Source: an uncultured virus (IMG/VR IMGVR_UViG_3300029953_000002)
Lineage: Duplodnaviria > Heunggongvirae > Uroviricota > Caudoviricetes
Direction: 5' to 3' (one strand)
Virus record (IMG/VR): IMGVR_UViG_3300029953_000002
Length of the DNA: 41,879 nucleotides
Below the pieces are notes generated by a model, which was given only the letters and a program-made list of their open reading frames with translations, had not been told where the DNA came from and did not search any database. Below, piece by piece: positions 4,526 to 41,773 of this stretch. Position numbers and translations under genes: made by a program. The first letter of the stretch is position 1, and each line of letters opens with the position of its first letter.

Positions 4526-6550
4526 CTAGCTTATGTCTCCTAATACTTCATATGGTAATAACAATGCGTCAAAAATGTGATTTGGTCTATTTGTATTAAT
4601 AAAACTCATCGGTTTAATAAGCACGTCCCGATGTCCTTCATAGGCCATTGCTGTTGATAGACTGCGCTGTTGCATCGACATCTTAGTTACTCCAAGCGCT
4701 GATCTTGTCCAAGGCTTTGGTAAACTATAATCATTATTATCAGCAGAAACAATCATAATCCCGTACAACACTACTTCAAGTACTGCTAGATTAACTACCA
4801 GTTTTTCATTAACTAAATCGTACAATTCTTGAAGTACATATGCCGGTGATACATTCTTATCTCGTTCCTGCATTTTATCAACAGAAGATTCCAACATAGC
4901 AGCTATGGCGCCACTATGGTCAGACATGTTGATATGTTTTAATGGCAGTGTTAAAAACGGTTTAGTCCAATCCCAATTTGACATATCAAAATAGTAATCA
5001 CCACCAGCATCGATTGTCCATCGGTTTTCTCGTATTAGTTTAAGCATATCTAAAGTCATGCTAGCTAAACGTCTACCTACTGAAACGTCAATTCCAATTG
5101 GATCGGCATCATCTATTTTAATACTAATTTTAGATAACTCAGATACTCGACCGATGTTCAAGTCATCAATATTTTTTATTTCTATTACATCTGTTAAGTT
5201 CTTGGCGTCGTCTTCTAAGATTATGAATTGTACTTTCTTTCCTTTTAGATTATCCGCTAGCCAATATGAATTTTCATCAGAAGGATCAATTCTTAAATAT
5301 TTACGATGTTCACTTTCTAGAATAATCCCTTCTACAGCAGAGCTACCGTCAAGATGCTTTAACGATAGTACGTTCTGCGATGATTTTGAAGCAAGGGCAG
5401 TGCAACATACTTGACCTATGTTAGTGTCTTTCGGAACAGATAACGACAGTTGACCAAAACAAACACTGCAAATACCATACGGATCAGGATGTCTACAATG
5501 TATAACTGATCGAAGTTTTAATGTTCTCCCAATTAATTCATGACTGTCTGCATGAATGGTCTTTAATACACCGTCGTCATCCATGTAGTTTTTTCCAATC
5601 AGCTGCTTCAAATCTCCTTGGCGAACAGAGCCTTTTCTATTTTCTGTTTTTCTTACATTCCAATATACATATTCAGTTGACCCGCAATCACCAGTGTGTA
5701 AATTACAAACGATCTGCGACATCAGTTGCAGACGTCTAGAAAAGTACTCGGCTTGTTGTAATGGAGTTTTACTAAATGACAGACTCTTTGCAGCTGACCG
5801 AGATTCAATTAAAGAATCATGCAACAAACGTATTCCTTGTGCAAATCCACGAACAATTGGGTGCCTAAATACATTTGAATCAACATCGGTCAAAACACCT
5901 CTAGCACTAACGCATTGTTGCACTTGTCCCATGCTTACTAAATTAGACCTAGATGCTTTTGATATAGCGTTATTAGGTAATTCTTTACCGCTCATCAAAA
6001 CACTCTTTACAATTTTGTGCGTGTCTTCTATATCCTTCTGTCCTGGATTTGGGAGTTCTTGAAGTCTGGTATTAGCTTCGCGGATTGTTGGGTTATTTAA
6101 TACCTCGATGAAGTCTGTTATATCTAGCGATACGACATATTCTTCTAAACGATAGGATAAATCGTTATACATCGCATTCGTATAACGATAAATGCGTTCG
6201 CATAACTTATCCCTAAAATCATACTCAAATTCAATATTTGATTTATCCTCAGGATGTGTTTCGAAATGGTTATCATACACGGACCACATTGCATTGCCGA
6301 GTAACTCTAAATGAGTATCAGAACCAAGGCGCTTACTATCACCCAATATATTGGTAAGATGGTGTTTTGGCAATAAAGGCGTATCTTGAAATTCTCGATG
6401 AAAATCCCATGAATATGAACTATAGAGCGTTGCCCTATCATTCGTGCTAACGATTTCTCCGTTATCGAATACAAGATCAAAAGACCCTGTTAATATATCC
6501 CATAACTCTTTAGTTGTATATTTAAGTAACGTTCTTGCTAATATTTTCAT
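4526..6550 (-). CDS. Non-virion RNA polymerase beta' C-terminal subunit (phiKZ gp74-like)
   Basis: Bridge-helix-like ESRSAAKSL...AEYFSRRLQL, DCGS, ICSVCFG Zn site, trigger-loop-like NIGQ...SQNVLSLKH. Confidence 0.9.
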   Translation of the reverse strand: MKILARTLLKYTTKELWDILTGSFDLVFDNGEIVSTNDRATLYSSYSWDFHREFQDTPLLPKHHLTNILGDSKRLGSDTHLELLGNAMWSVYDNHFETHPEDKSNIEFEYDFRDKLCERIYRYTNAMYNDLSYRLEEYVVSLDITDFIEVLNNPTIREANTRLQELPNPGQKDIEDTHKIVKSVLMSGKELPNNAISKASRSNLVSMGQVQQCVSARGVLTDVDSNVFRHPIVRGFAQGIRLLHDSLIESRSAAKSLSFSKTPLQQAEYFSRRLQLMSQIVCNLHTGDCGSTEYVYWNVRKTENRKGSVRQGDLKQLIGKNYMDDDGVLKTIHADSHELIGRTLKLRSVIHCRHPDPYGICSVCFGQLSLSVPKDTNIGQVCCTALASKSSQNVLSLKHLDGSSAVEGIILESEHRKYLRIDPSDENSYWLADNLKGKKVQFIILEDDAKNLTDVIEIKNIDDLNIGRVSELSKISIKIDDADPIGIDVSVGRRLASMTLDMLKLIRENRWTIDAGGDYYFDMSNWDWTKPFLTLPLKHINMSDHSGAIAAMLESSVDKMQERDKNVSPAYVLQELYDLVNEKLVVNLAVLEVVLYGIMIVSADNNDYSLPKPWTRSALGVTKMSMQQRSLSTAMAYEGHRDVLIKPMSFINTNRPNHIFDALLLPYEVLGDIS

Positions 6551-6580
6551 TAGTATTCCTTTTTAGTATACGTAAATTAC

Positions 6581-8755
6581 TTATTTATACACAACTGTCT
6601 GATCACTTTCCCAGTTAGGTTTATAGTCTCTGTATATAAAAGACAATCCGCTACATTCTGAAATATGTTTAACGAGACTTAACGGTCTCGCTCCTCCTAA
6701 TGGTAAAATCTTTCTATCCACTGCCGATTGAATTGCTGTGGGTTTATCAGCGCCTAGAATACTATACAAAATTTGTTTATGTGCAGCTGGGTTATTATTA
6801 CGATCGAGAATATCAGCAGTTACTTTTGCACCAGCGTATGCTGCATAGATACGAACCTCAGACTCTCCAAGAGCACGAATTGCTTGTTGTCGAGATGGGT
6901 GTGAATGTTTATCAGTATTAGTAACTTGAGACAATACTCCAAAATGTTGTAGTTTGCCGCTGGACACAGCTGTCCAGTCGTCGCCTGTTTTCTCTAACAA
7001 AATCATATACACACCGCCAATGCGTACATTATTTTTAGTAATAACGCGTTTACCAGAGTTACCAATGTAACTAACAGGGCCGTACACTGGTTTATAAAAC
7101 ATTTCTAATTGTTTAATTATTTCTTCTGATTCTGGTTCGTTTTCAGGAGGCATATATAGATAAATGCCATCTTTAATAACTGATGCTAGATGATCAATAC
7201 GACGGCCTTTATACTCACCATCTGTAAACCAGACGTGCATCTTTGGAGAAACAATATTATAATAACCTAACAAATATTTCCAAGCGCGATCTATGGAATC
7301 TGGTTGGGTTAGTTCAAGTGTGCTTAGAACTGTTTTAATCTCATGCTCGGAATAACTATCCATTGTTGTCTTGTGTTTAGCGGTTGTAGCACCAAAGAAC
7401 CAAGGATGAATATCATTCTTTATTTTAATAACAACATCACGACTAGCCGCATTAATGTATTGTTCGTATAATCGACCAATATTCATTCGTGAAATAGTAG
7501 AATTAGGGTCCATCACGATATCTGCCCGATTACCGTTTTCATCCACAGGCATTTCATCCGGTTCAGCGACGTGTACGATAACTCCCTTACCACCGTGACA
7601 ATCTGACAATTTAAATCCTGTAATAGGTTCAATGTCATACTCGATTGTAAACTCCACACGCCAGTCATCTAATTGTGCTTGGCGATACAGTTTAATAATC
7701 CGGTGTTGGTCGCTATCTACAACAGATAGTGCTTCAACTACCATTCTGTGAAATTCAGGAGTAATTCTTAAGTTCTCACGACGATCGCTTTTCAGGCGAT
7801 TATATTCTTCTAGAATTTCCTTATAAAACTCACGTCTAGCTAAGTCGTATTTTTCTACTTGTGTTTCCATTCCAGCAACCGCGTCAGGTGCGCTATTTTG
7901 ACTATCGTGTTGTACGCGAATATCAACAATTCTTCCACCAGCACCAGCTGCGTATGTGATTTTATCAAATACAAAATCTGGCTCCATAAGAGCACTAACA
8001 CTTTGTTCAACTACAGCTAATCCTTTATCGTAGCTTCGAAGACACATCAGAATACCGTCATATCGAACGCGATCCCCTATATCAGGGAATGGCTTGAAGT
8101 TATTTTCATCACCATATAAATTCAAAGCAAAACGTTTACTGCCCCATTCAACTGTACGTTGCTCATAAGTCTTAAAAGCAAATCTTCTTAATACATCTCT
8201 ACTAATAATTACACCGTCTTCAGAAACCGCTGGATGCGTCATGAAAGCCATATTGCACTGAACACCGTACTTATAACCACCGTTTGGTGTAATTGACGGT
8301 GAGTCTAAAAACACGGTTCCTTCTGCTATAGCAGCACCTGGTCGAATATTTCTAATTCCATCTTGTTCTTTATATTCAAAACCAAAGTATTGGTGATAAG
8401 AACAATACTTAACCAAATTAAATATTCCTACTTCTTTAGTAATTGCGTTTTCATAAATTACTAAAGTTTGAGGATTCATCTTAATTGAATCAGCACCTAT
8501 CTTGGGACGATAGCGTGGAATGATCTTGATGATTTCTCCATCGCACGGCATTCTCACTTTGAATGTATATTTACCAAACTCACGCTCAACACCAGTTTGA
8601 CAACGACGCTCTGTAGCGCCATTGACAACAAGTGTCTGCGAAATATGACTCGAGAACATTTGCTCTCGACTACTAGAGTTGTGTTGCCTCCATGGGTTTA
8701 ACCCATTAACTCCCTGAAACTCACGAAAAAGCTGATTAGAAACCTTAGTGCTCAT
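6581..8755 (-). CDS. Non-virion RNA polymerase beta C-terminal subunit (phiKZ gp71-73-like), uninterrupted
   Basis: SSSREQM, SEDG, GFKLSDCHGGKGV, ADIVMDPNSTISRMNIG, RALGESE; start moved to ATG 8755 behind AAGGA. Confidence 0.92.
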   Translation of the reverse strand: MSTKVSNQLFREFQGVNGLNPWRQHNSSSREQMFSSHISQTLVVNGATERRCQTGVEREFGKYTFKVRMPCDGEIIKIIPRYRPKIGADSIKMNPQTLVIYENAITKEVGIFNLVKYCSYHQYFGFEYKEQDGIRNIRPGAAIAEGTVFLDSPSITPNGGYKYGVQCNMAFMTHPAVSEDGVIISRDVLRRFAFKTYEQRTVEWGSKRFALNLYGDENNFKPFPDIGDRVRYDGILMCLRSYDKGLAVVEQSVSALMEPDFVFDKITYAAGAGGRIVDIRVQHDSQNSAPDAVAGMETQVEKYDLARREFYKEILEEYNRLKSDRRENLRITPEFHRMVVEALSVVDSDQHRIIKLYRQAQLDDWRVEFTIEYDIEPITGFKLSDCHGGKGVIVHVAEPDEMPVDENGNRADIVMDPNSTISRMNIGRLYEQYINAASRDVVIKIKNDIHPWFFGATTAKHKTTMDSYSEHEIKTVLSTLELTQPDSIDRAWKYLLGYYNIVSPKMHVWFTDGEYKGRRIDHLASVIKDGIYLYMPPENEPESEEIIKQLEMFYKPVYGPVSYIGNSGKRVITKNNVRIGGVYMILLEKTGDDWTAVSSGKLQHFGVLSQVTNTDKHSHPSRQQAIRALGESEVRIYAAYAGAKVTADILDRNNNPAAHKQILYSILGADKPTAIQSAVDRKILPLGGARPLSLVKHISECSGLSFIYRDYKPNWESDQTVVYK

Positions 8756-8857
8756 AACGTTTTCCTTTATGTACAACATTGTGTTATAACAACTAAATAT
8801 AAATTTGGAAAAATAATAATCTTTATTGTTATTTTTATGATGTCATTACCACACACT

Positions 8858-9451: not shown

Positions 9452-9495
9452 AAATAGCATCTAATCTTTTTAAGGATTAGATGCTATTTATGCCG
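9452..9495. terminator. Intrinsic terminator-like hairpin followed by TTTATGCCG
   Basis: AAATAGCATCTAATC / GATTAGATGCTATTT. Confidence 0.75.
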
Positions 9496-20996: not shown

Positions 20997-22859
20997 TTAC
21001 TGCCAGCGGCTGAAACCACGATTTGCACCAGACGGTGTCGCGTTTTGATTATAACCACTGCGGAAGATACCGCTCGATTCAGGGGTCAACAAAGTATGAC
21101 CCGAGAACTGTGAGCGAGCACGTTCGTAATTACCAAGATCCTGATACGAGTATACAGGCTTCAGAACCAAACCAGCTTCTTGGCAACCCTTAACTAGTGC
21201 GTTAATGAAACCGACTTCAAACGTGACGCGGCGAGCGTAGCCTGTGAATACCGCGTTATTGCAAATTGATTGGATGATACGTTTCCGTTCATACAAGCGT
21301 TTCGGCAGAGGGATATGTGTGCTTGCAAAAGAATCAGACCACAACTTAATTGCACCTGGGTCTTGTGCGCCGACACAATTCAACACTGCCAAATAATCAA
21401 TATCGCGAATGTCTGCACGTTCACCACGAGAGTTCGTGTAATGACCCAGATGGATACGATTGTATTCATCAGTTGCGACACGGCCCTTTGGATCAAAATA
21501 CTTTACAAAGTTACCATTCGTAAGCTCGTTAGCGGCTTTAAGAATAGCGATATTTGCTTGGGTATTCCCAGCGGCAGCTGCCGAGAATACTTCATTGAAC
21601 CAGGTCTGAGCACCGCATTCCGGCACATCCAAGGACACCACAAGACCAGGACGAATTGTTGCCTTAACCAACTGCCCGAGATTTTCTGGTTTAAACTTAT
21701 CGGCATGTGTGTCAATGCGTTGACCAACGCCACTTGGATCATTGCTAAAGTTAACTTCGATGCCAATAGCACCGATATCACGGAAGTCTACGTCGCCAGA
21801 AGGAAAATCCCTTGGACGGAAACCTTGAACCCAAGCGTTGTTTTCGCCGAGGCCAACGACTGGAACTAGCGCCAATAATTGCGCTGGAATAGTAAGCAGT
21901 TCGGTTGATTCCATCGTTGTTGCAACAAACCGAGCAGCGTAACGCTGAAAAGATTGTTGTGTTGGATCTGGAATACCGTACAAGTTTTGTGGCGCAACGA
22001 TAGGGTCCCAGAAGATATCCAGGAAACCACCAATTCGCGCGATAGGTGCTTCACGTCCAGCATCTTGCTGTTGTGTTTGTTGCGACTGCACTGGTGCAGC
22101 GGTAAAATCCAATACGATATCACTGCGCAATGGCGCACCGACCGCATCTTGTTGTTGTGGCATTGCAAACTGTGTTCGCACTGACAAAGTGGAATCATTC
22201 TTAGCGTTTGCAATATTGATATCTTCAAAGTTCTTGCTATTAATTTCAAGCTCAGAAGTACATGCAAAAATAGCATTTGCAATCAATACGTGCAATGCCG
22301 ATTTGTCTTCAACGTTAAAGTCCTTAGGAACAACACAAGCACCTGCGTTACGTGGTGTGTCTTGCGGAAACAACCGCTGAACGTAACCAAGCACAACACC
22401 CTTCAAAGTATCGTTGCAGGAATCACCAGCAGTATAGAGAATCTCAACGGATTGACCGTTAATCATTTCTGGCTTAGGTGTGCGAATATCCGCAGACGCT
22501 TCGAGCAACAACGAGTGATACGCAACACCCAACAATGGGTTCTGCTTATCACGAACAGCGAGAATCAAAATAGAAATCGACAAGTTTGGTGTTTGTTCTT
22601 TTTCAATTGGAACCAAATTGATTTCAAAACTCTTATCGGCTTTTTCTGTGATCATCTCAGTCATTGCTTTGGTGATCTTGTTCAATGCTTCCGATGCCTG
22701 TGTGCGACTGAATGCAGGCCGTGACAACTTGCGCAGATTGGTGAAGCTGTACCCAGTGCTATCGGCTTTGGTTTGATGATCACGATTAGGTGCAAAACTA
22801 CCAGTAGGGTTGTTTTGAACTTCTGCACCATTGCCAGTACTTTCGTCTTTAATAGCCAT
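20997..22859 (-). CDS. chmA: Chimallin, major phage nuclear shell protein (phiKZ gp54-like)
   Basis: 620 aa directly upstream of the gp55-like RNAP gene; flexible N- and C-terminal tails; relatively GC-rich coding sequence; own early motif and terminator. Confidence 0.85.
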   Translation of the reverse strand: MAIKDESTGNGAEVQNNPTGSFAPNRDHQTKADSTGYSFTNLRKLSRPAFSRTQASEALNKITKAMTEMITEKADKSFEINLVPIEKEQTPNLSISILILAVRDKQNPLLGVAYHSLLLEASADIRTPKPEMINGQSVEILYTAGDSCNDTLKGVVLGYVQRLFPQDTPRNAGACVVPKDFNVEDKSALHVLIANAIFACTSELEINSKNFEDINIANAKNDSTLSVRTQFAMPQQQDAVGAPLRSDIVLDFTAAPVQSQQTQQQDAGREAPIARIGGFLDIFWDPIVAPQNLYGIPDPTQQSFQRYAARFVATTMESTELLTIPAQLLALVPVVGLGENNAWVQGFRPRDFPSGDVDFRDIGAIGIEVNFSNDPSGVGQRIDTHADKFKPENLGQLVKATIRPGLVVSLDVPECGAQTWFNEVFSAAAAGNTQANIAILKAANELTNGNFVKYFDPKGRVATDEYNRIHLGHYTNSRGERADIRDIDYLAVLNCVGAQDPGAIKLWSDSFASTHIPLPKRLYERKRIIQSICNNAVFTGYARRVTFEVGFINALVKGCQEAGLVLKPVYSYQDLGNYERARSQFSGHTLLTPESSGIFRSGYNQNATPSGANRGFSRWQ

Positions 22860-25766: not shown

Positions 25767-27914
25767 TCAGTAGAAATCACTTACTAATTTTGTTATCTTT
25801 TTATCAGTCATGTAAATGCCAAGACTCTCTAGGATAATGTAAAGAACTTTAGTGCTATCTGAAACAATTTTACGCACACCCACTACATCGAAAATCTCTT
25901 TCGGTATACCACCAGATGCTAGTATACTTTCTGGAAGAATAAATGTTTTACCTAAAGTAAGTTTATCATTCTTTAACATCCATGCTTCCATTCGTGCCGC
26001 TAATTCACGATCTTCCATATTCAGAAGCCACTCGCGGGTATGTGTTGGACTATTCACCTCAGCAGATATTTTGATACCGATATAGGGTGGTTTATTAACC
26101 ATGCCGTACTTCGGGCCAAATACTTCTTGCCACATCGTGTACTGCATGTAGTTTGCTGTTAACTCACCCCGCTTATAAGACTCAGCTGGTTTAATCTGTG
26201 ATCGTTTAAAATACTCAAACTTACCTTGCGCGATTGAACTGATAATATTTCTTTCAATATCACCCACTTGTTTTAATATCTGATCCCAGCTTAATTTCTT
26301 TTCTTTCAATATTTCATTCATGACAAACAACATTAATTTCTTTGCTTCTGCCATAACAAGTTTAGGCGCATTAGATGCCTTAAGATGCACGCCTTTAATT
26401 TCTGATTTGTACTTACTATAAATGTTTCCTTCTTGCGCTCCAATTAACGCAAAGTAATGCTTTGCTACTTGAGTTGGGGTAAAAACATCGAATTTAAATT
26501 CATTCTTCATCGCAATTTGAAATAGACGTTTCTTTTCAATTCCAAAATTAGTTGACATGATAGCAAGAACATGCGTGATAGTTTGCGATGCTAAGAAAAT
26601 CAATGCCGCAGCTACTGCATTTGAAACAGGATCAAAGGCATAACTTCCGCTATACCAAAGCACCCAATCTTGTACTGTAAAGATTGTTGAGTCTGTATCT
26701 GAAGTAACAACACAACGACGAATACTTTCTGGGAAATAAGCAACCGATGCCGGTACGTTCTTAGTAACCCAAAACGCTTTTATTAAATTCTTATATTCAT
26801 CAATAACGTTTATGATGTTTTCTACTGTTGAGGCATAAATCCCATACGCGGGTGTACCTGAAACATCCTTAACGTTAATAACTTCTTTTGTTGATTCTTT
26901 CTTTAAATCATCAGCACAAATCATTGAAGCAAAATTACAAATATCGTCAGTTGCTTTCTTAATTGCTGAATCTGGATCAGGATGAACCACATTAACTCTT
27001 GTTGATAATTTTGTAATGAAAATTCTTACTGCGTCATTATTAAATTTCATTAAATGATAAAGATCGCCTGTGTAGACAAAAGCTGATCGTTCTATTGGCG
27101 ACAGTGTTCTTATTAAGTCATCAATTCTTTTTTGTTGTGAGCGAGTCTTCCAATATAAATCAGTGGAGTAACGAACTGTTTCAATTGTTTCTTCAATCGA
27201 CGGATGGCGTAGCCCGAACTCGCACATTGCTTTTTCTATAGCAGAATAATCGCTGTGGTTGATAATACTGATAATGTTATTTCGAGTAATGTCGGCTGAC
27301 CAATAGTGTCTGTTGCCAGATATAAATTTTTCATTGTTAGCATTACCGTATCCTGAAGTAGATCTACAATTAGAAGTCAGCGTCGAGTGTGCTGTCTTGT
27401 TATTTAGAACTGTAGAAGAAGATACGTGCGCGCCAGATAAAGAATTATTAGCAAGCTTTTTATTAATCTGTTCTTTTTCTTTTATATCTTCTAAAAATTT
27501 ATTACCGGCTAATTTAGCAGCAAATTTCTCTTTTTTAGCTTTTCCGCGTGCTGCTACGTTACCATCAATAAAATCTACTAATAATGATTTCTTAACTTCT
27601 GGAGATAAATAAGTAGTAAGAGTTGGTGCTATCAAGTCGTTTTCTTTAACGGCACTATTGATATACTCAGATAACTTACCTACTTTTCTTTCACGATCTC
27701 CATTACGACCACGTTCTAGATAATGTATTTTTGGATCTTTAAATTCGAACTCTCCATTAGGTTTTAAAGATGTTATCACAAACTTAACACAGTCGTCATA
27801 AGGCTTCCCGGTCATATGTGCTAAATAACTGGCTGAGTCATCAACGTAGTGTTTAAAAATATTAACATCACGAACGTATTCATTCGTGTCTAAAATAAAA
27901 GGGTTATCGGCCAT
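25767..27914 (-). CDS. Family-B DNA polymerase, polymerase-domain subunit (phiKZ gp50-like)
   Basis: Motif B KKLANNSLSG, motif C VTSDTDS, KHY and EIKGV. Confidence 0.88.
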   Translation of the reverse strand: MADNPFILDTNEYVRDVNIFKHYVDDSASYLAHMTGKPYDDCVKFVITSLKPNGEFEFKDPKIHYLERGRNGDRERKVGKLSEYINSAVKENDLIAPTLTTYLSPEVKKSLLVDFIDGNVAARGKAKKEKFAAKLAGNKFLEDIKEKEQINKKLANNSLSGAHVSSSTVLNNKTAHSTLTSNCRSTSGYGNANNEKFISGNRHYWSADITRNNIISIINHSDYSAIEKAMCEFGLRHPSIEETIETVRYSTDLYWKTRSQQKRIDDLIRTLSPIERSAFVYTGDLYHLMKFNNDAVRIFITKLSTRVNVVHPDPDSAIKKATDDICNFASMICADDLKKESTKEVINVKDVSGTPAYGIYASTVENIINVIDEYKNLIKAFWVTKNVPASVAYFPESIRRCVVTSDTDSTIFTVQDWVLWYSGSYAFDPVSNAVAAALIFLASQTITHVLAIMSTNFGIEKKRLFQIAMKNEFKFDVFTPTQVAKHYFALIGAQEGNIYSKYKSEIKGVHLKASNAPKLVMAEAKKLMLFVMNEILKEKKLSWDQILKQVGDIERNIISSIAQGKFEYFKRSQIKPAESYKRGELTANYMQYTMWQEVFGPKYGMVNKPPYIGIKISAEVNSPTHTREWLLNMEDRELAARMEAWMLKNDKLTLGKTFILPESILASGGIPKEIFDVVGVRKIVSDSTKVLYIILESLGIYMTDKKITKLVSDFY

Positions 27915-27994
27915 TGTTGTTTTTTCCTTTTTCCAGTAGCAAATTATAAGTCGTGTAGATATTTTTTAAAGTTTTTAATCTTTAAAAAAGAAGA

Positions 27995-28410
27995 CGGCAT
28001 AAAAAAAAGGGTTCCAGTTGTTTAGACCGGAACCCATAAAAAGAATTATCTAGCGAGGAGAGCACTAGATAACGTGCGGCGACGCACACAACAAGATAAC
28101 ATTAACTCAGACAACTTTGCCTTGTTCAGCATCTCTACCCGAAAAGGAATAACGAGGAAATGCACAGACTAAGCTACATTGCCCATTTCATTAAGTTATA
28201 TATAAGGAGTAAAAATATAACTTAATGAACCTAGGAGTTAATGCTCTCTTAGCACTATTTCATTTGATAAATTTCAAACAAAACTTCTTAACAGTGATCC
28301 AACGGAGGTAAAAACCACTATTAAGCAAACCGGGTGTGCCAAACCCTTTACTGTCAAACAATTAATGTTCCCAATAAAAAATAACTGAAAAACATTAGTT
28401 GCTCTACATA
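27995..28410 (-). ncRNA. Candidate structured ncRNA with anti-Shine-Dalgarno loops
   Basis: No ORF of 60 aa or more; serial hairpins with loops UUUUACCUCCGUUGG, UUUUACUCCUUAU, UUAUUCCUUUU, CUCUCCU; ends in a terminator with U-run and TTTATGCCG. Confidence 0.6.
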
Positions 28411-28420
28411 CAATACATTT

Positions 28421-28819
28421 TTAACTTATACTGAGTGTGAACGCGTTATAACCGTTCGCTACTAAACAAGAATTGATACGCGCTATGTCTGCTTGACTAA
28501 CATTTGTAATTGTAGCTACAATTGTATTTGTCTCAGTTAACACCACGGTAGAATCGTTAATCCACGGAATACCAAGAACAACTGAAACTCCTGCGGTTGT
28601 TGTTATTTTAATATAGTTATACTGCTTTGGATCGTTTGGTGTTCCTACCGGAAGTGATGGATAAACAGCCACATGTATCGCCTGAATAGGTCTATCTCTA
28701 TTAGCCATTTCATAGTTCATAACGGCATCAACAACAGCATCGACATAACCAGAACCCAACACAGGAACAGCGAATAGATTAAACGTGTACGCTTGACCTA
28801 TTTGAAAGTTTGTAGACAT
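28421..28819 (-). CDS. Conserved small protein (phiKZ gp49-like by position)
   Basis: 132-aa beta-rich ORF upstream of the DNA polymerase gene. Confidence 0.7.
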   Translation of the reverse strand: MSTNFQIGQAYTFNLFAVPVLGSGYVDAVVDAVMNYEMANRDRPIQAIHVAVYPSLPVGTPNDPKQYNYIKITTTAGVSVVLGIPWINDSTVVLTETNTIVATITNVSQADIARINSCLVANGYNAFTLSIS

Positions 28820-28834
28820 GATGATCCTAAATTA

Positions 28835-29224
28835 TTAATTGAAGAATTTTTTAAGAACAATATCGTTCCCTAACATACAATCATAAGTGTATGGAAATTC
28901 TAATTGCCCTATTCTATTTTTTTCGTATGCGCCTAAATTACGCACTGCGTTATATATACCCATAGCCAAAATGTGCGTAGCGTTTTTTACAAGACTAAAC
29001 AAAATAGGATCAGATATATAAGAGGTATTGCGCATACGATTAAGTTCAGGAAGTCTAGATAAATCATTAAAACAATTTTCTTCCCCATCTAATAAGATAA
29101 AAATTATTTGAGTAATAATCTCTACCACATCATCTCTTCCAAATACATTAGCTGTTTTATTACAAAATTCTTTTACCAATTCTCTACTGTTCAGTATAAT
29201 GAGAACGTCTTTATTAGTCTGCAT
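28835..29224 (-). CDS. Paralogue-array protein
   Basis: N-terminal LIILNSRELV, C-terminal FPYTYDCMLGNDIVLKK. Confidence 0.7.
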   Translation of the reverse strand: MQTNKDVLIILNSRELVKEFCNKTANVFGRDDVVEIITQIIFILLDGEENCFNDLSRLPELNRMRNTSYISDPILFSLVKNATHILAMGIYNAVRNLGAYEKNRIGQLEFPYTYDCMLGNDIVLKKFFN

Positions 29225-29244
29225 GTTACATCACTATCTAATAT

Positions 29245-29622
29245 TCAGCATTCAGGTAGTTCTAGTCGTGTCAGTAAAATGTCGTTTCCCAATAATTGAA
29301 CAAATTGATAAAACAGATAACCATTACGATAAGCATTAAGTCGTTTTAAGTCACTGTATATTTTTGACGCAAACTCAGACATTGCTTCGGCGGTGTCGTC
29401 GGCATCTTGTGCAAAAGCGGCACCAAGATGATACCTAGCAGCACACTGACAGCTAGCATCAATGTTTAAATTTGTATTGCTATTATCGTACGACATTGCT
29501 TCAAAAATTGTTTCCAATACATCTTCTTCAGTTACTTCGATTTCTATAAGTGCTTTTATTTTTGTACGTAAAAATTTCACTAGATTACGAGTATCTAGGA
29601 TAACATAGTCTGGTAATTTCAT
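29245..29622 (-). CDS. Paralogue-array protein
   Basis: Likely start MKLPDYVILDTRNLV; C-terminal AYRNGYLFYQFVQLLGNDILLTR. Confidence 0.7.
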   Translation of the reverse strand: MKLPDYVILDTRNLVKFLRTKIKALIEIEVTEEDVLETIFEAMSYDNSNTNLNIDASCQCAARYHLGAAFAQDADDTAEAMSEFASKIYSDLKRLNAYRNGYLFYQFVQLLGNDILLTRLELPEC

Positions 29623-29632
29623 TTCGTTTATT

Positions 29633-30016
29633 TTATTTATTTTTCTCGAATACGATAGTATTGGCATTTAACATTCTCCTTAGTGCGTATGGAAAGTAGT
29701 TGTCACTATAAGCATTAATAGCAATCAGTTTATTTTTTATTTGATTACCTAATTTATTTACAGCGTTTATTACTCTTTCTTCTGCACCGTTATCATTGTC
29801 ATAGTTTTCAGATAGACCTATACCTTTGCTCATAAGGAACGCGGTACAGGTCAATCGAACAGTTGAGGTTGGTAAGTAATTAATTGAATTTGTTATTTTT
29901 ACTAAAGCTTCATCAGCTTCGATGACAGGCATGTCTAGTTCACACACTATTGACCTAAAAGCGTTAAGCTCGCTCTTAAGTTCAATAATTAAATAATCCG
30001 GAAATTTATTATTCAC
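29633..30016 (-). CDS. Paralogue-array protein
   Basis: FPDYLIIELKSEL; C-terminal AYSDNYFPYALRRMLNANTIVFEK. Confidence 0.7.
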   Translation of the reverse strand: MNNKFPDYLIIELKSELNAFRSIVCELDMPVIEADEALVKITNSINYLPTSTVRLTCTAFLMSKGIGLSENYDNDNGAEERVINAVNKLGNQIKNKLIAINAYSDNYFPYALRRMLNANTIVFEKNK

Positions 30017-32110: not shown

Positions 32111-33130
32111 TTACAGAACAAGTCCTGTATCGGTATCTGGCTGATCTACTTTTGTCAAGATGCTTTCACTTGCTAAACGTGCTTTTTGTCGCGCAGCCGC
32201 GTCTGCTAGAATTTTTGACAGGTGATTGTATTCACCTTTAATAATTCCATCACTAGTAACAAAGTGCATTGGAATACGGCCCTTCAGCGTGTCAGTACAG
32301 CTTTCTGGGATATAACCATTACATTGATAATCTGGAGTGATTGGGAACGGTGTTGTCATTCCTTCTACAGCCAAGGTAGCAACGCTGATAATGTTTCCAA
32401 TGTTGCTAGGGATATCATCGGTCTTTTCAATCAACGACAACGCGACGAGCTGTGGTGTCTTGAACGAAGTCACTTTGTTGAAATTCAACCAATGAGCTAG
32501 ATCTTTAGAATCCAACTCTAGATTTTCACGGGAGAACAAAACACATAAACCAGTGATAATTTCAATGATGCCGCGATCAGCAACAATGCGTGGATCTGGG
32601 TCATCGCGTGATGTTACGTTCTTATTTTGGACGTAATACATCACAACAGGCAATTTACGCAAGCCTGCAATTGACTCATACGACTTCAATGTCTTCAGTG
32701 TGTTTTCAGCAGCAAGAGCCGATTCAATTCCGCCAATAGCAATACAAACTGTTGGTGTATTTTGTTCTAACAATTCACTCATGATCAATGGCGCAATAAC
32801 AGAACCAGAGCCACCGCCTGTTGACGACAGAACAATAGTAAGATCAGCCGATGGAAACTTCTGAAGAATAGCGCGAATGTGACGGCTAATCTCAGCATGA
32901 TTTTCACGACGAACCTTTCCAGACCCATCAAGTCCTTCAAGTACATAGGAGTTATCAGAATTGATATGCTTATGTGAATTAGATTTACTTGCGTCAACAT
33001 AAACAACTTGCAGCATTGCAAAGCCATCTTCAACCTGACCTTTATGCTTTTCTAATTGATTACCAATATTCCAACCAGCACCACCACAGCAAATAACAAG
33101 TACTTCACCTTTTGGCGTCGACATTTCCAT
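32111..33130 (-). CDS. phuZ: Phage tubulin PhuZ
   Basis: CGGAGWNIG, GLDGSGKVR, tubulin signature STGGGSGS, LDSKD (T7 loop), acidic tail DTDTGLVL. Confidence 0.93.
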   Translation of the reverse strand: MEMSTPKGEVLVICCGGAGWNIGNQLEKHKGQVEDGFAMLQVVYVDASKSNSHKHINSDNSYVLEGLDGSGKVRRENHAEISRHIRAILQKFPSADLTIVLSSTGGGSGSVIAPLIMSELLEQNTPTVCIAIGGIESALAAENTLKTLKSYESIAGLRKLPVVMYYVQNKNVTSRDDPDPRIVADRGIIEIITGLCVLFSRENLELDSKDLAHWLNFNKVTSFKTPQLVALSLIEKTDDIPSNIGNIISVATLAVEGMTTPFPITPDYQCNGYIPESCTDTLKGRIPMHFVTSDGIIKGEYNHLSKILADAAARQKARLASESILTKVDQPDTDTGLVL

Positions 33131-34093: not shown

Positions 34094-34106
34094 TAAATGC
34101 TATATA

Positions 34107-34140
34107 CATAAAAGCCAGGACATCAACCCTGGCTTTTATG
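34107..34140 (+). terminator. Terminator-like hairpin
   Basis: CATAAAAGCCAGG / CCTGGCTTTTATG. Confidence 0.75.
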
Positions 34141-34207
34141 CTGCGCTAAAATAAAAAAAAAATAATAAGTTAATAAAGGAGGGGTAAACTTCCATCCCCT
34201 CCTCACT

Positions 34208-35173
34208 CTAGCTGTACTTCACCGGTAAATCGTTATACTGCTGAATCAGGCTATCGTCTATCCTCCCGATGTTTAAAGACTGACTAGAACAGTCAGTGCC
34301 GATCATCCATTTAAGCTGTTCTTCATTTAATGAAACACAACCATAAGGAAGATGTTTCGTTTCAAATAAAGCCGCACGCAGCTTGTATGGTCCACTCCAT
34401 CGTACTAATGGTTTCCCTATGTTGTCTGGGTACTCCTGCCAAACAGCAACTAAACCAATAATAGATTTAGTAATAATCATCCGGCGACCATACGGATCGT
34501 AACAATGCCTCTGCTCCCCTCTCTCCAGATAATTGTACGTCTCTCTATCTATTTGCAGGTTATCGAAGCTACCGTTCGGAGATTCCCATTCAGGATTATA
34601 TCTGAACATAATCGGTCCCATGAGTTCGAACTTCTTAATAAACAACTGCATCTCAGGGTAACGATTCAGTAAATTCATCGTTAATGAATCCGTGAGGTTA
34701 TCCTTAACAGTTTTCTGTTCAGTAGTCCTTGGGGTGTGTCGTGTTGATCGCATTACTTCAGGCATGTAATGTTGTTTTGTACTGCCGTCGCCAAAATTAT
34801 CAAAACTAACTGAATCCCCATTTGGTTGTAGGACAGTAACTGTCCGTGATACTTCGTTTGGCTCTGGTACAAATAACTTCATACCAGCAGGTAGTGATTC
34901 TTCTATTGGAGACTTAACAATAGGCGTAGGTTCAGCTTTCTTCTCTTCCTGTACTTCTTTCTTAACAGGTTGTGGTTTGGCTTCTTCCTTATTAATCATA
35001 CCGGCTTCGGTTAATACAAACTCCACGAAATGAACCAACCATTTTCTTGGATAGATGACAAAGACGACTTTTGTCTTTGGCTTAACGATCTTTGTTTGTT
35101 TGCTCTTTGATTCTTCTTTCTTTTTGAGTTCCCGCTTATAAGCAGAACTCCATACTTTTGAAAAACTGCTCAT
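34208..35173 (-). CDS. Hypothetical early-region protein
   Basis: 321 aa, AGGAG RBS, terminator at ~34176-34204. Confidence 0.75.
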   Translation of the reverse strand: MSSFSKVWSSAYKRELKKKEESKSKQTKIVKPKTKVVFVIYPRKWLVHFVEFVLTEAGMINKEEAKPQPVKKEVQEEKKAEPTPIVKSPIEESLPAGMKLFVPEPNEVSRTVTVLQPNGDSVSFDNFGDGSTKQHYMPEVMRSTRHTPRTTEQKTVKDNLTDSLTMNLLNRYPEMQLFIKKFELMGPIMFRYNPEWESPNGSFDNLQIDRETYNYLERGEQRHCYDPYGRRMIITKSIIGLVAVWQEYPDNIGKPLVRWSGPYKLRAALFETKHLPYGCVSLNEEQLKWMIGTDCSSQSLNIGRIDDSLIQQYNDLPVKYS

Positions 35174-35236
35174 AGCACACTCCTATCTATAAAAAAAATT
35201 GTTCGAAGAGAACTGTTAGATTCTCTTCGATTTTAT

Positions 35237-35401
35237 TTATGCCGCTGATGCAGCTTTTGATACGGCTTGTGCCGCGAGGTCGGCGGCGTTTGTTTCGGAT
35301 TCCTTAGTGTTCTTGTCCTTTTCTTCTTGGAGACGCATTTCCGTTACCACATACGCACATCCAAGAAACCCAACAAGAACGCCCATGATGAATTTGCCCA
35401 T
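35237..35401 (-). CDS. Small single-TM protein (54 aa, not in track)
   Basis: MGKFIMGVLVGFLGCAYVVTEMRLQEEKDK...; AGGAG RBS. Confidence 0.7.
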   Translation of the reverse strand: MGKFIMGVLVGFLGCAYVVTEMRLQEEKDKNTKESETNAADLAAQAVSKAASAA

Positions 35402-35402
35402 G

Positions 35403-35627
35403 TTATAATACTCCTAAGTTAATGTCTTTCGATTCGATTGTTTTTCCATTAGTCGATTTCTCAACTAATACTTTTACCATCTTTTCACGCTGTGCTATTT
35501 TATCAGCTTCGGCTTTAGCTAGTCCTGCTTTGACCAAGACTTCACCTTTTAGGTAAATCTTCTGTCCAATTTGTGCACCTATTTGTTGGACGATACCGCC
35601 TATAAATTTCTCAATTAAAACGTTCAC
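35403..35627 (-). CDS. Small hypothetical protein
   Basis: 74 aa, GTG start behind AGGAGAGG. Confidence 0.65.
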   Translation of the reverse strand: MNVLIEKFIGGIVQQIGAQIGQKIYLKGEVLVKAGLAKAEADKIAQREKMVKVLVEKSTNGKTIESKDINLGVL

Positions 35628-35719
35628 GTCCTCTCCTTTTTATTTAGATTAGCGATCACGCTGTATCGCTAATCTAAACGACCTGTGAGGGCACAGGTCG
35701 TCTTGCCGATGTTTGTGGG

Positions 35720-35890
35720 TTACGCTGCAGGTGCGTCTGTTGCTGGCGCTGGTGTAGCGACATCGCCTACTGTTGCGGTTGTGGTCTTGTTGCCAAAGCT
35801 GATGTGGTCTTTTGCGAAATAGGCAGCTACACCACCAACAACGATAACGCCAAGAGCGATGAGGCCATTCTTCAGATTGATGTTCAGCAT
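35720..35890 (-). CDS. Small single-TM protein
   Basis: MLNINLKNGLIALGVIVVGGVAAYF; start 35890 behind AAGGA, downstream of the early motif. Confidence 0.7.
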   Translation of the reverse strand: MLNINLKNGLIALGVIVVGGVAAYFAKDHISFGNKTTTATVGDVATPAPATDAPAA

Positions 35891-35949
35891 GATATTTTCC
35901 TTTTGGGTGAGTAATAAATTTAGATCAAGCAAGAGAATTCTTACTAAAT

Positions 35950-35986
35950 CTCACAACTGTTATATATGTCTGAAATATTCTAGGAT
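35950..35986 (-). promoter_or_regulatory. Early promoter repeat, copy 1
   Basis: Minus strand ATCCTAGAATATTTCAGACATATATAACAGTTGTGAG. Confidence 0.8.
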
Positions 35987-36057
35987 CAAGTTTTCAAACA
36001 CGCTCCTTACTTACTTTACTACATGTACTTCTACTACAGATTTTTTACAATTACGAA

Positions 36058-36348
36058 CTACGCTGGATTGAGGTTTTCGGTAAACGTAACATCACTTACC
36101 GAATGACTTTCTTTAATGATTGAGGCTACCTTGCTTTCAAACTCCTCCATGAGCCTTCTGGCTTCTTGTGTGTGAAACTTGGCCTCCTCCATTGTTGTTT
36201 CGTCGTCGCAGTTACGTTCACCGGACAACAGCTCTGCTACTTGTTTTGCGATCTTGCGATTGCGAAAAGCAGTTGCTACTATTCCAGTTACTGCCAAGGT
36301 TACTACGCTGCCAATTGCTACGAGGATTTTTGTTTTTGCGGATGTCAT
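36058..36348 (-). CDS. Small single-TM protein with coiled coil
   Basis: ILVAIGSVVTLAVTGIVATAF followed by RNRK. Confidence 0.7.
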   Translation of the reverse strand: MTSAKTKILVAIGSVVTLAVTGIVATAFRNRKIAKQVAELLSGERNCDDETTMEEAKFHTQEARRLMEEFESKVASIIKESHSVSDVTFTENLNPA

Positions 36349-38097: not shown

Positions 38098-38134
38098 CTC
38101 ACCTCCAGTATATATGTCTGAAATATTATAGGAT
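38098..38134 (-). promoter_or_regulatory. Early promoter repeat, copy 2
   Basis: Minus strand ATCCTATAATATTTCAGACATATATACTGGAGGTGAG. Confidence 0.8.
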
Positions 38135-38168
38135 CAAGTTTTTCTCAGACATATACACTGGTTGTTTC

Positions 38169-38985: not shown

Positions 38986-39022
38986 CTCGCCTAAGGTATA
39001 TATGTCTGAAATATTCTAGGAT
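38986..39022 (-). promoter_or_regulatory. Early promoter repeat, copy 3
   Basis: Minus strand ATCCTAGAATATTTCAGACATATATACCTTAGGCGAG. Confidence 0.8.
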
Positions 39023-39027
39023 ACTAA

Positions 39028-39332: not shown

Positions 39333-39369
39333 CTCACCAAGATTATATATGTCTAAGATATTCTAGGAT
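39333..39369 (-). promoter_or_regulatory. Early promoter repeat, copy 4
   Basis: Minus strand ATCCTAGAATATCTTAGACATATATAATCTTGGTGAG. Confidence 0.78.
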
Positions 39370-39415
39370 AGTGTTTTTAACGGCATAAATGCCAAGCTAT
39401 TCACTTGGCTATTTT

Positions 39416-41733: not shown

Positions 41734-41773
41734 CGGCATAAATAGCATCGGTATAATCCGATGCCATTTATGC
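41734..41773. terminator. Bidirectional terminator-like hairpin with GGCATAAA/TTTATGC arms
   Basis: GCATAAATAGCATCGG / CCGATGCCATTTATGC between convergent genes. Confidence 0.75.

Follow-up and report, generated by a model that had tools for sequence, protein, structure and literature searches.

A candidate RNA with loops complementary to ribosome-binding sites upstream of the DNA polymerase gene of FLC9-like chimalliviruses

Several bacterial regulatory RNAs aim C/U-rich seed loops at Shine-Dalgarno (SD) sequences, among them RNAIII and the Rsa RNAs of Staphylococcus aureus with their UCCC motif (PMC2790875), LhrC of Listeria (PMC4132741) and 6C of Mycobacterium tuberculosis (PMC6486639), as described in the available text of these reports. 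Here we describe a candidate RNA of a similar kind from a nucleus-forming jumbo phage, a type of virus that splits transcription from translation and whose translation control is almost unknown. The window, by which we mean the whole 41,879-nucleotide stretch of the uncultured virus record IMGVR_UViG_3300029953_000002 that was analysed, belongs to a chimallivirus, that is, a phiKZ-like nucleus-forming jumbo phage, and the element lies on its minus strand between a phiKZ gp49-like gene and the DNA polymerase gene. Like RNAIII, the Rsa RNAs, LhrC and 6C, it unites several pyrimidine-rich hairpin-loop motifs in one RNA, and these are complementary to the SD region of many mRNAs.

ONT-cappable-seq of phiKZ and 201phi2-1 has yielded short '5'UTR-derived' and intergenic non-coding RNA candidates, to which the available text of the two reports assigns no function (PMC10914365, PMC11512511). 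A 2025 review of phage small RNAs does not mention jumbo phages in its available part, and the corresponding part of a 2026 jumbo-phage review states that phiKZ expresses non-coding RNAs whose role is unknown. We searched the open-access literature on phiKZ, Chimalliviridae, jumbo-phage small RNAs and phage small-RNA or ribosome-binding-site repression, with subscription journals and bioRxiv supplements outside the search, and found no such RNA described, in line with the initial annotation of the window, which had called the element undescribed for these phages.

The evidence is strong that the minus-strand RNA is real, conserved and expressed, and that the parts of it under selection are the loops, which are complementary to ribosome-binding sites (RBSs). 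What is new here is that the loops fit the RBS words of their own phage better than those of other phages.

A structured RNA in the gap before the DNA polymerase gene

The initial annotation had placed about 410 nucleotides free of open reading frames (ORFs) between the gp49-like and polymerase genes. The location holds, as does the lack of any sizeable ORF (there are only four, of 32-39 amino acids); the gap itself measures 506 nucleotides (27915-28420), and about 410 is the length of the RNA. When positions 27995-28420 were folded, the minus strand gave a minimum free energy (MFE) of -132.7 kcal/mol (z -7.2), which none of 100 shuffled sequences equalled, and the plus strand one of -91.1 kcal/mol (z -4.3). 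As the annotation had proposed, the minus-strand MFE fold contains four hairpins, which display ACCUCC, ACUCCUUA, UUCCUUUU and CUCUCCU in their loops. Hairpin 1 (28287-28325) has the loop UUUUUACCUCCGUU, with ACCUCC at 28309-28304. Hairpin 2 (28187-28229) is a perfect 15-base-pair stem with the loop UUUUACUCCUUAU (28214-28202). The loop of hairpin 3 (28129-28163), UUAUUCCUUUU (28152-28142), is the best match to the phage's own RBS consensus, AAAGGAA. Hairpin 4 (28045-28073) is terminator-like, its CUCUCCU loop and stem being followed by UCUUUUUAUG (28044-28035), and it is the probable 3' end of a short form of the RNA. A fifth CUCCU, likewise noted earlier, lies at 28233-28237, at the edge of a long-range helix (28250-28235 with 28108-28093), and is partly base-paired in the MFE fold. 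Toward the 5' end, the fold contains a hairpin with the U-rich loop UAUUUUUU (28352-28408), and a covariance model, described below, marks out a conserved 5' domain (28323-28368) consisting of UAAUUGUUUGACAGUAAAGG and then a small hairpin, GGGU/ACCC, with a UGGCA loop (28346-28332).

The 4-mers CUCC, CCUC and UCCU, which are characteristic of the anti-SD sequence, occur 12 times on the minus strand of the gap and once on the plus strand. Dinucleotide shuffles contained 3.3 +/- 1.9 of them, and 3 of 2000 shuffles reached 12; in 430-nucleotide segments on both strands of the 41.9 kb, the mean count was 2.6 (standard deviation 2.2, maximum 14). Eight of the 12 fall inside hairpin loops of the MFE fold, where 13% of the bases are found.

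Two other segments, at 34101-34605 and 35776-36305 of the plus strand, are the only ones in the 41.9 kb that equal the gap in CUCC-type words; they were considered as a second RNA of this kind and rejected, being antisense to minus-strand genes and small ORFs. The former has the top count of such 4-mers (14) and is antisense to the gene at 34208-35173, which is hence rich in GGAG and AGGA.

Searches for a known RNA returned nothing of relevance. A scan of the window against Rfam 15 gave matches at chance level only, the best overlapping one being SraB (15.6 bits; gathering score 130), and scans of the related loci L007, L043 and L001 gave none. A search of the window for tRNA and tmRNA found nothing, and blastn of the gap against 50,697 phage records gave no match. 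A 14-mer scan of IMG/VR returned at least 119 chance matches, and the sole relevant one was L048, a contig of L001.

The ends of the RNA are proposed from motifs. TATG at 28407-28410 of the minus strand, which the initial annotation had read as a late-promoter core, is present in the sequence, and its standing as a promoter is that of a motif match. Late promoters of phiKZ carry TATG with the G as the start, according to the available text of PMC4666361; by analogy, this would be a late-type promoter core of the non-virion RNA polymerase, and the RNA would probably start at G28407. TATG lies within the first 60 nucleotides of the gap in 16 of 35 distinct relatives, often as (A/T)TATGTAG. The minus strand has two terminator-like sites (28073-28045 and 28035-28009), whereas the plus strand has none. 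The second agrees with the U-tailed terminator predicted earlier and is of the phiKZ type: a stem at 28035-28009, a U run and then UUAUGCCGUC (28003-27993). Its sequence over 28035-27995 (GGGUUCCGG...CUGGAACCC, the U run and UUAUGCCGU) conforms to the published tail YTTATKYYGT, a motif derived from 61 phiKZ terminators in the available text of PMC10914365, and the tail is kept in the relatives of Burkholderia phage FLC9 (the FLC9 group). We suppose that the 3' end falls either after hairpin 4 (~28039) or at the phiKZ-type terminator (~28000), which would give a short form of ~369 nucleotides (28407-28039) and a long form ending near 28000, for an RNA length of about 370-410 nucleotides. The short form, with these presumed ends, has an MFE of -112.7 kcal/mol, against -73.0 kcal/mol for the opposite strand.

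A hairpin followed by TTTATGCCG(T) recurs behind other genes of the window, at 9489, 25748 and 35238 on the plus strand and at 41740, 39387 and 28001 on the minus strand. Since this unit fits the phiKZ terminator motif, the motif is conserved in this distant clade.

Conservation, strand and presence in RNA libraries

The polymerase of the window phage is less than 60% identical to that of each of 304 matching phage records, and the closest cultured phage by this measure is FLC9 (59%). In 38 of 43 loci, the gene just ahead of the polymerase is a homologue of the gp49-like gene. The intergenic gap is 240-990 nucleotides long in relatives down to 46% polymerase identity and ~100 nucleotides in a group at 35% identity. 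The sense strand of the gap has an excess of anti-SD 4-mers in L001 (7 vs 0) and in the FLC9 group (17-31 vs 3-6), and the excess weakens in more distant relatives.

Nine FLC9-group gaps could be aligned with 82% column identity, and RNAalifold predicted 114 pairs for this alignment, 30 of them with compensatory changes. The paired cells comprised 854 Watson-Crick pairs, 148 G-U pairs and 3 A-C pairs. Because a G-U pair becomes an A-C mismatch on the opposite strand, the structured RNA has the same sense as the polymerase gene. Thus the G-U asymmetry, together with the terminators and the fold energies, bears out the earlier proposal of a non-coding RNA on the minus strand, which had itself appealed to G-U wobbles in the stems.

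The same asymmetry bears on the possibility that the plus strand is the functional one, as a sponge of the CsrA/RsmA type with GGA loops or as a set of small ORFs that use the complements of the loops as RBSs. Read on the plus strand, the loops are AAGGAG, ACGGAGG, AAGGAA and GAGGAG, a 32-amino-acid ORF with a GTG start lies at 28074-28172, and the RNA contigs described below give no strand. Against these points stand the 148 G-U and 3 A-C cells in covarying helices, a fold that is 40 kcal/mol worse, and the position of both terminators on the minus strand; moreover, SD and start codon lie 2-3, 13 or 16-17 nucleotides apart on the plus strand. Given a stranded library, an adaptor-like contig end at 28039 would also be consistent with a minus-strand RNA, the identity of the adaptor being our assumption. 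A functional plus strand thus appears extremely improbable, and the CsrA sponge that the initial annotation had kept as its fallback is contradicted by the covarying stems.

In L001 and the FLC9 group, the pyrimidine loops are kept while the stems differ or covary. In the FLC9 group, the loops UUUCCUCCUUGUUU and CUCCGCAA are retained although their stems covary. Using nhmmer, hairpin 1 of the window aligned to an L001 hairpin with the loop UUUUUACCUUCCUUUUUA (E 0.005), and L190 has the loop UUUUUACCUUUUUC. L001 also has loops corresponding to loop 3 (GAUUCCUUUAA) and to loop 4 (CUCUCCA), both carried by unrelated stems, and L032 has a hairpin and loop resembling the 5' U-rich-loop hairpin of the window RNA. 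Over 17 lineages, 79 of 181 CU-motifs lay in hairpin loops of the MFE folds, against 23.2 expected (3.4-fold). The pyrimidine loops are the conserved, selected part of the RNA.

A 5' domain is shared as well: at the syntenic site the family has UAAUGUUCUGAAGAGAAGG and, after it, a small hairpin whose loop is GGCA. Three of the four pairs in this small helix show a compensatory change, and its covariation score was reached by none of 500 shuffles. The FLC9-group version of the 5' motif occurs once per genome in three whole genomes; a general promoter was considered as its identity and rejected on account of this uniqueness. We searched 33 sources with a covariance model built from seven other lineages, leaving out the window and L001 (the E-values are rough). 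It matched the window only at 28323-28368 (25 bits, E 0.0034), and there were nine matches in all, each at the syntenic site: the window, L001 and L002 (E 0.0008), and the six remaining FLC9-group loci. The other 24 of the 33 sources, including L032, L019 and L035, gave nothing at E <=1, and no match was obtained in L036, L037 and L041. Judged by sequence and position, the RNA is a family at the intergenic site between the gp49-like and DNA polymerase genes of FLC9-like chimalliviruses.

The gp81-gp83 gap of 201phi2-1 (42454-42997) was considered as the site of a homologous RNA and rejected, as it is not similar and is probably protein-coding. There, gp82 (L200:933-1476; 42454-42997) is annotated opposite to its neighbours, and on the strand of the neighbours an open frame with GGAG and AUG lies between two terminators. 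Gene gp82 may have been annotated on the wrong strand.

Part of the region 27600-28800 is contained in seven metatranscriptome runs, and four of these, from three studies, were compared over 26000-30000. The data are assembled contigs, not reads: they do not measure strand, ends or level, their depth is not suited to ranking level, and parts of 26000-30000 without a contig are not evidence of silence. Each of the four runs has exactly one gap contig, at 28062-28355 in run X13 (depth 15.6), 28064-28355 in X15 (4.4), 28098-28334 in X16 (50.4) and 28039-28397 in X17 (105.3; the widest). The gap contigs are separate from those of the flanking genes, whose depths are 2-5, and in three of the four runs they are ~3-50 times deeper. 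The X17 contig has an adaptor-like loose end at 28039, directly after the U run of hairpin 4; we take this end to be Illumina adaptor. The gap stretch is present and over-represented in RNA libraries, and its one contig per environmental library agrees with the discrete product that had been expected.

These data also bear on the idea that the RNA has little function of its own, being a long structured 3' untranslated region (UTR) or terminator array that stabilises the mRNA of the upstream operon, with the loops a by-product of composition. The upstream genes (31917-28421) share the minus strand, hairpin 4 and the last hairpin are terminator-like, and the TATG start is a motif only, absent from the FLC9 group. 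However, the gap contigs are separate from the upstream gene, no contig in the four runs covers 28412-28545, and the gap is up to ~50 times deeper; in addition, the loops and the 5' domain are conserved where the remainder diverges, and the matching of loops to RBSs, described next, is far over the genome background. We regard a mere 3' UTR as very unlikely.

Loops and ribosome-binding sites

Genes of the window were called by a simple ORF rule that favours ATG starts after an SD-like word, with the RBS window set at -22 to -1. The commonest 7-mers of the RBSs are AAAGGAA (18 of 119 genes) and AAAAGGA (13), the complement of loop 3. Five CU elements of the RNA were compared with 119 RBS windows (-22 to +3) and with 119 control windows from coding sequence. 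Any of the five matched over at least 7 nucleotides in 41 RBS windows and 7 controls, and over at least 8 nucleotides in 18 RBS windows and 2 controls. Loop 3 alone matched 15 RBSs and none of the controls at 8 nucleotides or more, and the loop of hairpin 2 matched 11 RBSs and 1 control at 7 or more. The best targets of loop 3 are the RNA polymerase subunit gene at 4526-6550 (10 nucleotides), chmA (9), the DNA polymerase gene (8) and phuZ (8). Both matches singled out by the initial annotation, to the RBS at 6554-6563 over 10 nucleotides and to that of chmA over 9, were recovered; the gene that had been called beta prime is named 'RNA polymerase beta subunit' by PHROGs.

Tests on the loops only replaced a k-mer test on the whole RNA because the A/U-rich background swamps the whole-RNA signal. 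For 13 phages, loops extracted automatically from the MFE folds were compared with the RBS sets of the same phages in a 13 x 13 matrix. Own pairings exceeded permuted pairings with p 0.008 (k=6), 0.0003 (k=7) and <2e-5 (k=8), and none of 200 internally shuffled loop sets attained the observed own-phage value. At k=7, the loops match 16% of own-phage RBSs; random segments of the same genome match 3.6% (0 of 300 samples reach 16%) and the adjoining stem segments 4.3%. The correspondence can be followed in individual words. Phages G001 and G004 favour the RBS word AAACAAGGA and have the loops UUUCCUCCUUGUUU and UUUCCUUGUUUU; G011 favours AAACGAGGA and has CUUUUCCUCGUUUUAG; G005 favours UAAAGGAG and has UACUCCUUUA. 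Among the phages, UCCUUGUUU goes with AAACAAGGA and UCCUCGUUU with AAACGAGGA. The earlier claim that the loops are complementary to RBSs holds chiefly for the phage's own, co-varying over the 13 phages; loops 1 and 4 have no excess of extended matches.

This co-variation is relevant to a protein scaffold or sponge. On that view, an RNA-binding protein of phage or host (for instance, a nucleus-associated factor like ChmC or a host protein that binds pyrimidines) would dock on the repeated CU-rich loops, and the complementarity to RBSs would be secondary. The loop motif is repeated on varied stems, like those of known sponges, the RNA is abundant, and the strictly conserved 5' domain, once per genome, resembles a specific handle. 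A binding site for a protein should not follow the flanks of the RBSs, as when UUGUUU accompanies AAACAA and CGUUU accompanies AAACG, and we consider a sponge decidedly doubtful.

We give about an even chance to a trans-acting anti-RBS RNA, working like RNAIII or 6C and aimed mainly at the phage's own mRNAs, by analogy with those RNAs. Its loops would pair in trans with the RBSs of many phage mRNAs, those of the RNA polymerase subunit, chimallin, DNA polymerase and PhuZ genes being among the best matches, and loop 1 would perhaps also pair with strong host SDs. The target word would be the phage's extended RBS, which is AAAGGAA here and AAACAAGGA or AAACGAGGA in relatives. Pairing would keep 30S subunits off, so that translation would be lowered or timed, and the RNA would be the RNA counterpart of a global translational repressor. 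The promoter, the exact ends, binding, repression and timing are presumed steps. As a more tentative extension, it is possible that such phages use a private translation code, in which a phage-specific extended RBS word is read by one abundant, co-evolving multi-loop RNA; this RNA would be a single switch for a large part of the phage's genes, acting on translation or on what becomes of their exported mRNAs in the cytoplasm.

Several observations weigh against a trans-acting anti-RBS RNA. In the window phage, loops 1 and 4, the two most similar to the 16S tail, show no excess at 7 nucleotides or more (3 of 119 RBSs vs 5 of 119 controls, and 1 vs 0, respectively), and hairpin 4 may be only a terminator. 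The whole window RNA matches 30 of 119 own RBSs at k=8, which is not above the 23.9 +/- 5.5 of dinucleotide shuffles, and this whole-RNA test brings out no preference for the own phage, the G001 RNA matching the RBSs of the window phage better than its own. Three of the 13 phages (L030, L032 and L024) have little or no loop-RBS excess, base composition accounts for part of the own-phage signal, and the preference of the gene caller for SD-backed starts shapes the RBS windows. Matches do not differ significantly between gene classes (8 of 14 nucleic-acid or nucleus genes vs 3 of 14 structural genes, p 0.12). As for the transcript, its strand and ends rest on computation and one adaptor-like contig end, the gap contig of run X15 is no deeper than the flanks, and TATG occurs in the first 60 nucleotides of none of the 10 FLC9-group gaps, the promoter being a motif match. 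Finally, the sequences offer no reason for a phage to hide its own consensus RBS.

A further alternative is that the RNA acts in cis as the leader of the DNA polymerase gene. Transcription would either stop at the two terminators, the short RNA being a by-product, or read through, with the loops or flanks sequestering the polymerase RBS; the output would be set by conditional termination. Wherever a lineage has the RNA, the polymerase gene follows it immediately, and the available text of PMC10914365 reports 17 '5'UTR-derived' short RNAs from conditional termination in phiKZ. The 5' UTR and RBS of the polymerase gene (AAAAAGGAAAAAA) occupy 27915-27992 of the minus strand in the window, and this region is complementary to loop 3 over 8 nucleotides and to part of hairpin 1. 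The longest matches between a loop and the own polymerase RBS are 10 nucleotides in L025 and L018 and 8 in the window phage and L007. All nine FLC9-group sequences have UUGUAACGACCUGUA ahead of the terminator and, complementary to it, UGUAGGUCGACAA directly next to the polymerase SD (alignment columns 469-484 and 570-583; ~2380-2395 and 2465-2480 in L007), so that an invariant 14-base-pair complementarity brackets the terminator; either RNA pairing or a site in the DNA may lie behind it. The polymerase 5' UTR of the 35%-identity group (L036, L037, L041, L192, L195 and L196), taken as the 100 nucleotides before the start, is a single hairpin, CACGU...ACGUG, which contains CCAUCCUUAUAG or CCCUCCUUAUAG (CCUCCUUAUAG) and follows a strong terminator of the upstream gene.

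On the other side, loops compared with the own polymerase RBS only, over 21 lineages, gave no significant result (p 0.07 by length, 0.08 by energy), whereas the genome-wide RBS test is significant. At least four loops exceed the need of one RBS, and two consecutive terminators suit an RNA that ends. The bracketing complementarity, being invariant, provides no covariation evidence, and it is weak in the window (12 nucleotides with 2 mismatches). No contig in the four RNA runs joins the gap with the polymerase gene, a weak point since contigs can break. We think a cis-acting leader unlikely.

Genomic setting and comparison with known systems

The assignment of the window to a chimallivirus accords with its genes for chimallin (chmA, 20997-22859), PhuZ (32111-33130) and subunits of the non-virion RNA polymerase (4526-8779); nearly all of these marker genes, the polymerase gene included, lie on the minus strand. 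The downstream neighbour of the RNA is a family B DNA polymerase gene (25767-27914, minus strand; phrog_2927, phiKZ gp50-like). The upstream neighbour (28421-28819, minus strand; phrog_3235; stop codon 28423-28421) encodes 132 amino acids, and its product is related to 201phi2-1 gp81, annotated 'similar to phiKZ gp49' (BLASTP E 1e-15), for which reason the name 'gp49-like' is correct. The virus record totals 114,092 bases, the window included, and an identical copy of the phage is found on a 287,603-base metagenome contig. The metagenome scan returned two identical copies only (L163 and L164; 0 differences in 4745 nucleotides) and no closer relative.

Other features of the record were seen in passing. 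Beyond the window, at L258:11654-14766, a second DNA-polymerase-like gene (phrog_3011) is split into parts of 382 and 83 amino acids with an HNH endonuclease gene between them, probably, as judged from this arrangement, by an intron or similar insertion with a homing endonuclease. Within the window, the apparent gap at 35174-36057 holds three small minus-strand ORFs (54, 74 and ~56-70 amino acids), each preceded by an SD-like word. A conserved word of ~24 nucleotides (TATATGTCTGAAATATTCTAGGAT on the plus strand, ATCCTAGAATATTTCAGACATATA on the minus strand) has at least five copies among small genes, with positions at 35963-35990, 38111-38160, 38999-39025 and 39346-39372, and is probably a set of early-type promoters.

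If confirmed, the RNA would be the first in a lytic phage to regulate translation globally, and it would mean that an RBS word and the RNA that reads it can evolve together in a virus. The cultured phage FLC9 carries the same RNA, so that bench study is possible.

Phage factors that act on the RBSs of many of the phage's own mRNAs to alter the translation programme are exemplified in T4 by RegA, a translational repressor of early mRNAs, and RegB, which cuts GGAG in early RBSs. These are proteins, whereas the agent proposed here is a base-pairing RNA. CsrB, RsmY and RsmZ are protein sponges with the GGA motif on the transcribed strand. The phage RNA resembles them in being abundant and in showing one short motif over and over in its hairpin loops; its structured, terminated strand shows UCC in place of GGA.

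The candidates of phiKZ and 201phi2-1 are, like the window RNA, chimallivirus RNAs placed before a gene and ended by a phage terminator of the same motif. In the available text of the two reports, they are shorter than 250 nucleotides, as compared with ~370-410 for the window RNA with its presumed start at a TATG motif, and anti-RBS loops are not reported for them (PMC10914365, PMC11512511). Among the 11 small RNAs reported for 201phi2-1, none of those in the available text (sRNA001-006) lies at the gp81-gp83 gap, 42454-42997 (PMC11512511).

RNAIII, the Rsa RNAs, LhrC and 6C remain the closest in kind: the phage RNA, too, is a non-coding transcript with at least two pyrimidine motifs in hairpin loops. 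The likeness is one of loop design and complementarity, and there is no sequence or Rfam relation. Unlike them, it comes from a lytic nucleus-forming phage, is ~370-410 nucleotides long and has at least four such loops, and these reach past the SD core into the flanks of the phage's own RBSs and vary with those flanks between phages. Thus an RNA with anti-SD loops is already known as a kind, and what is new is its carrier, its size, its multivalency and its co-variation with a phage-specific RBS word.

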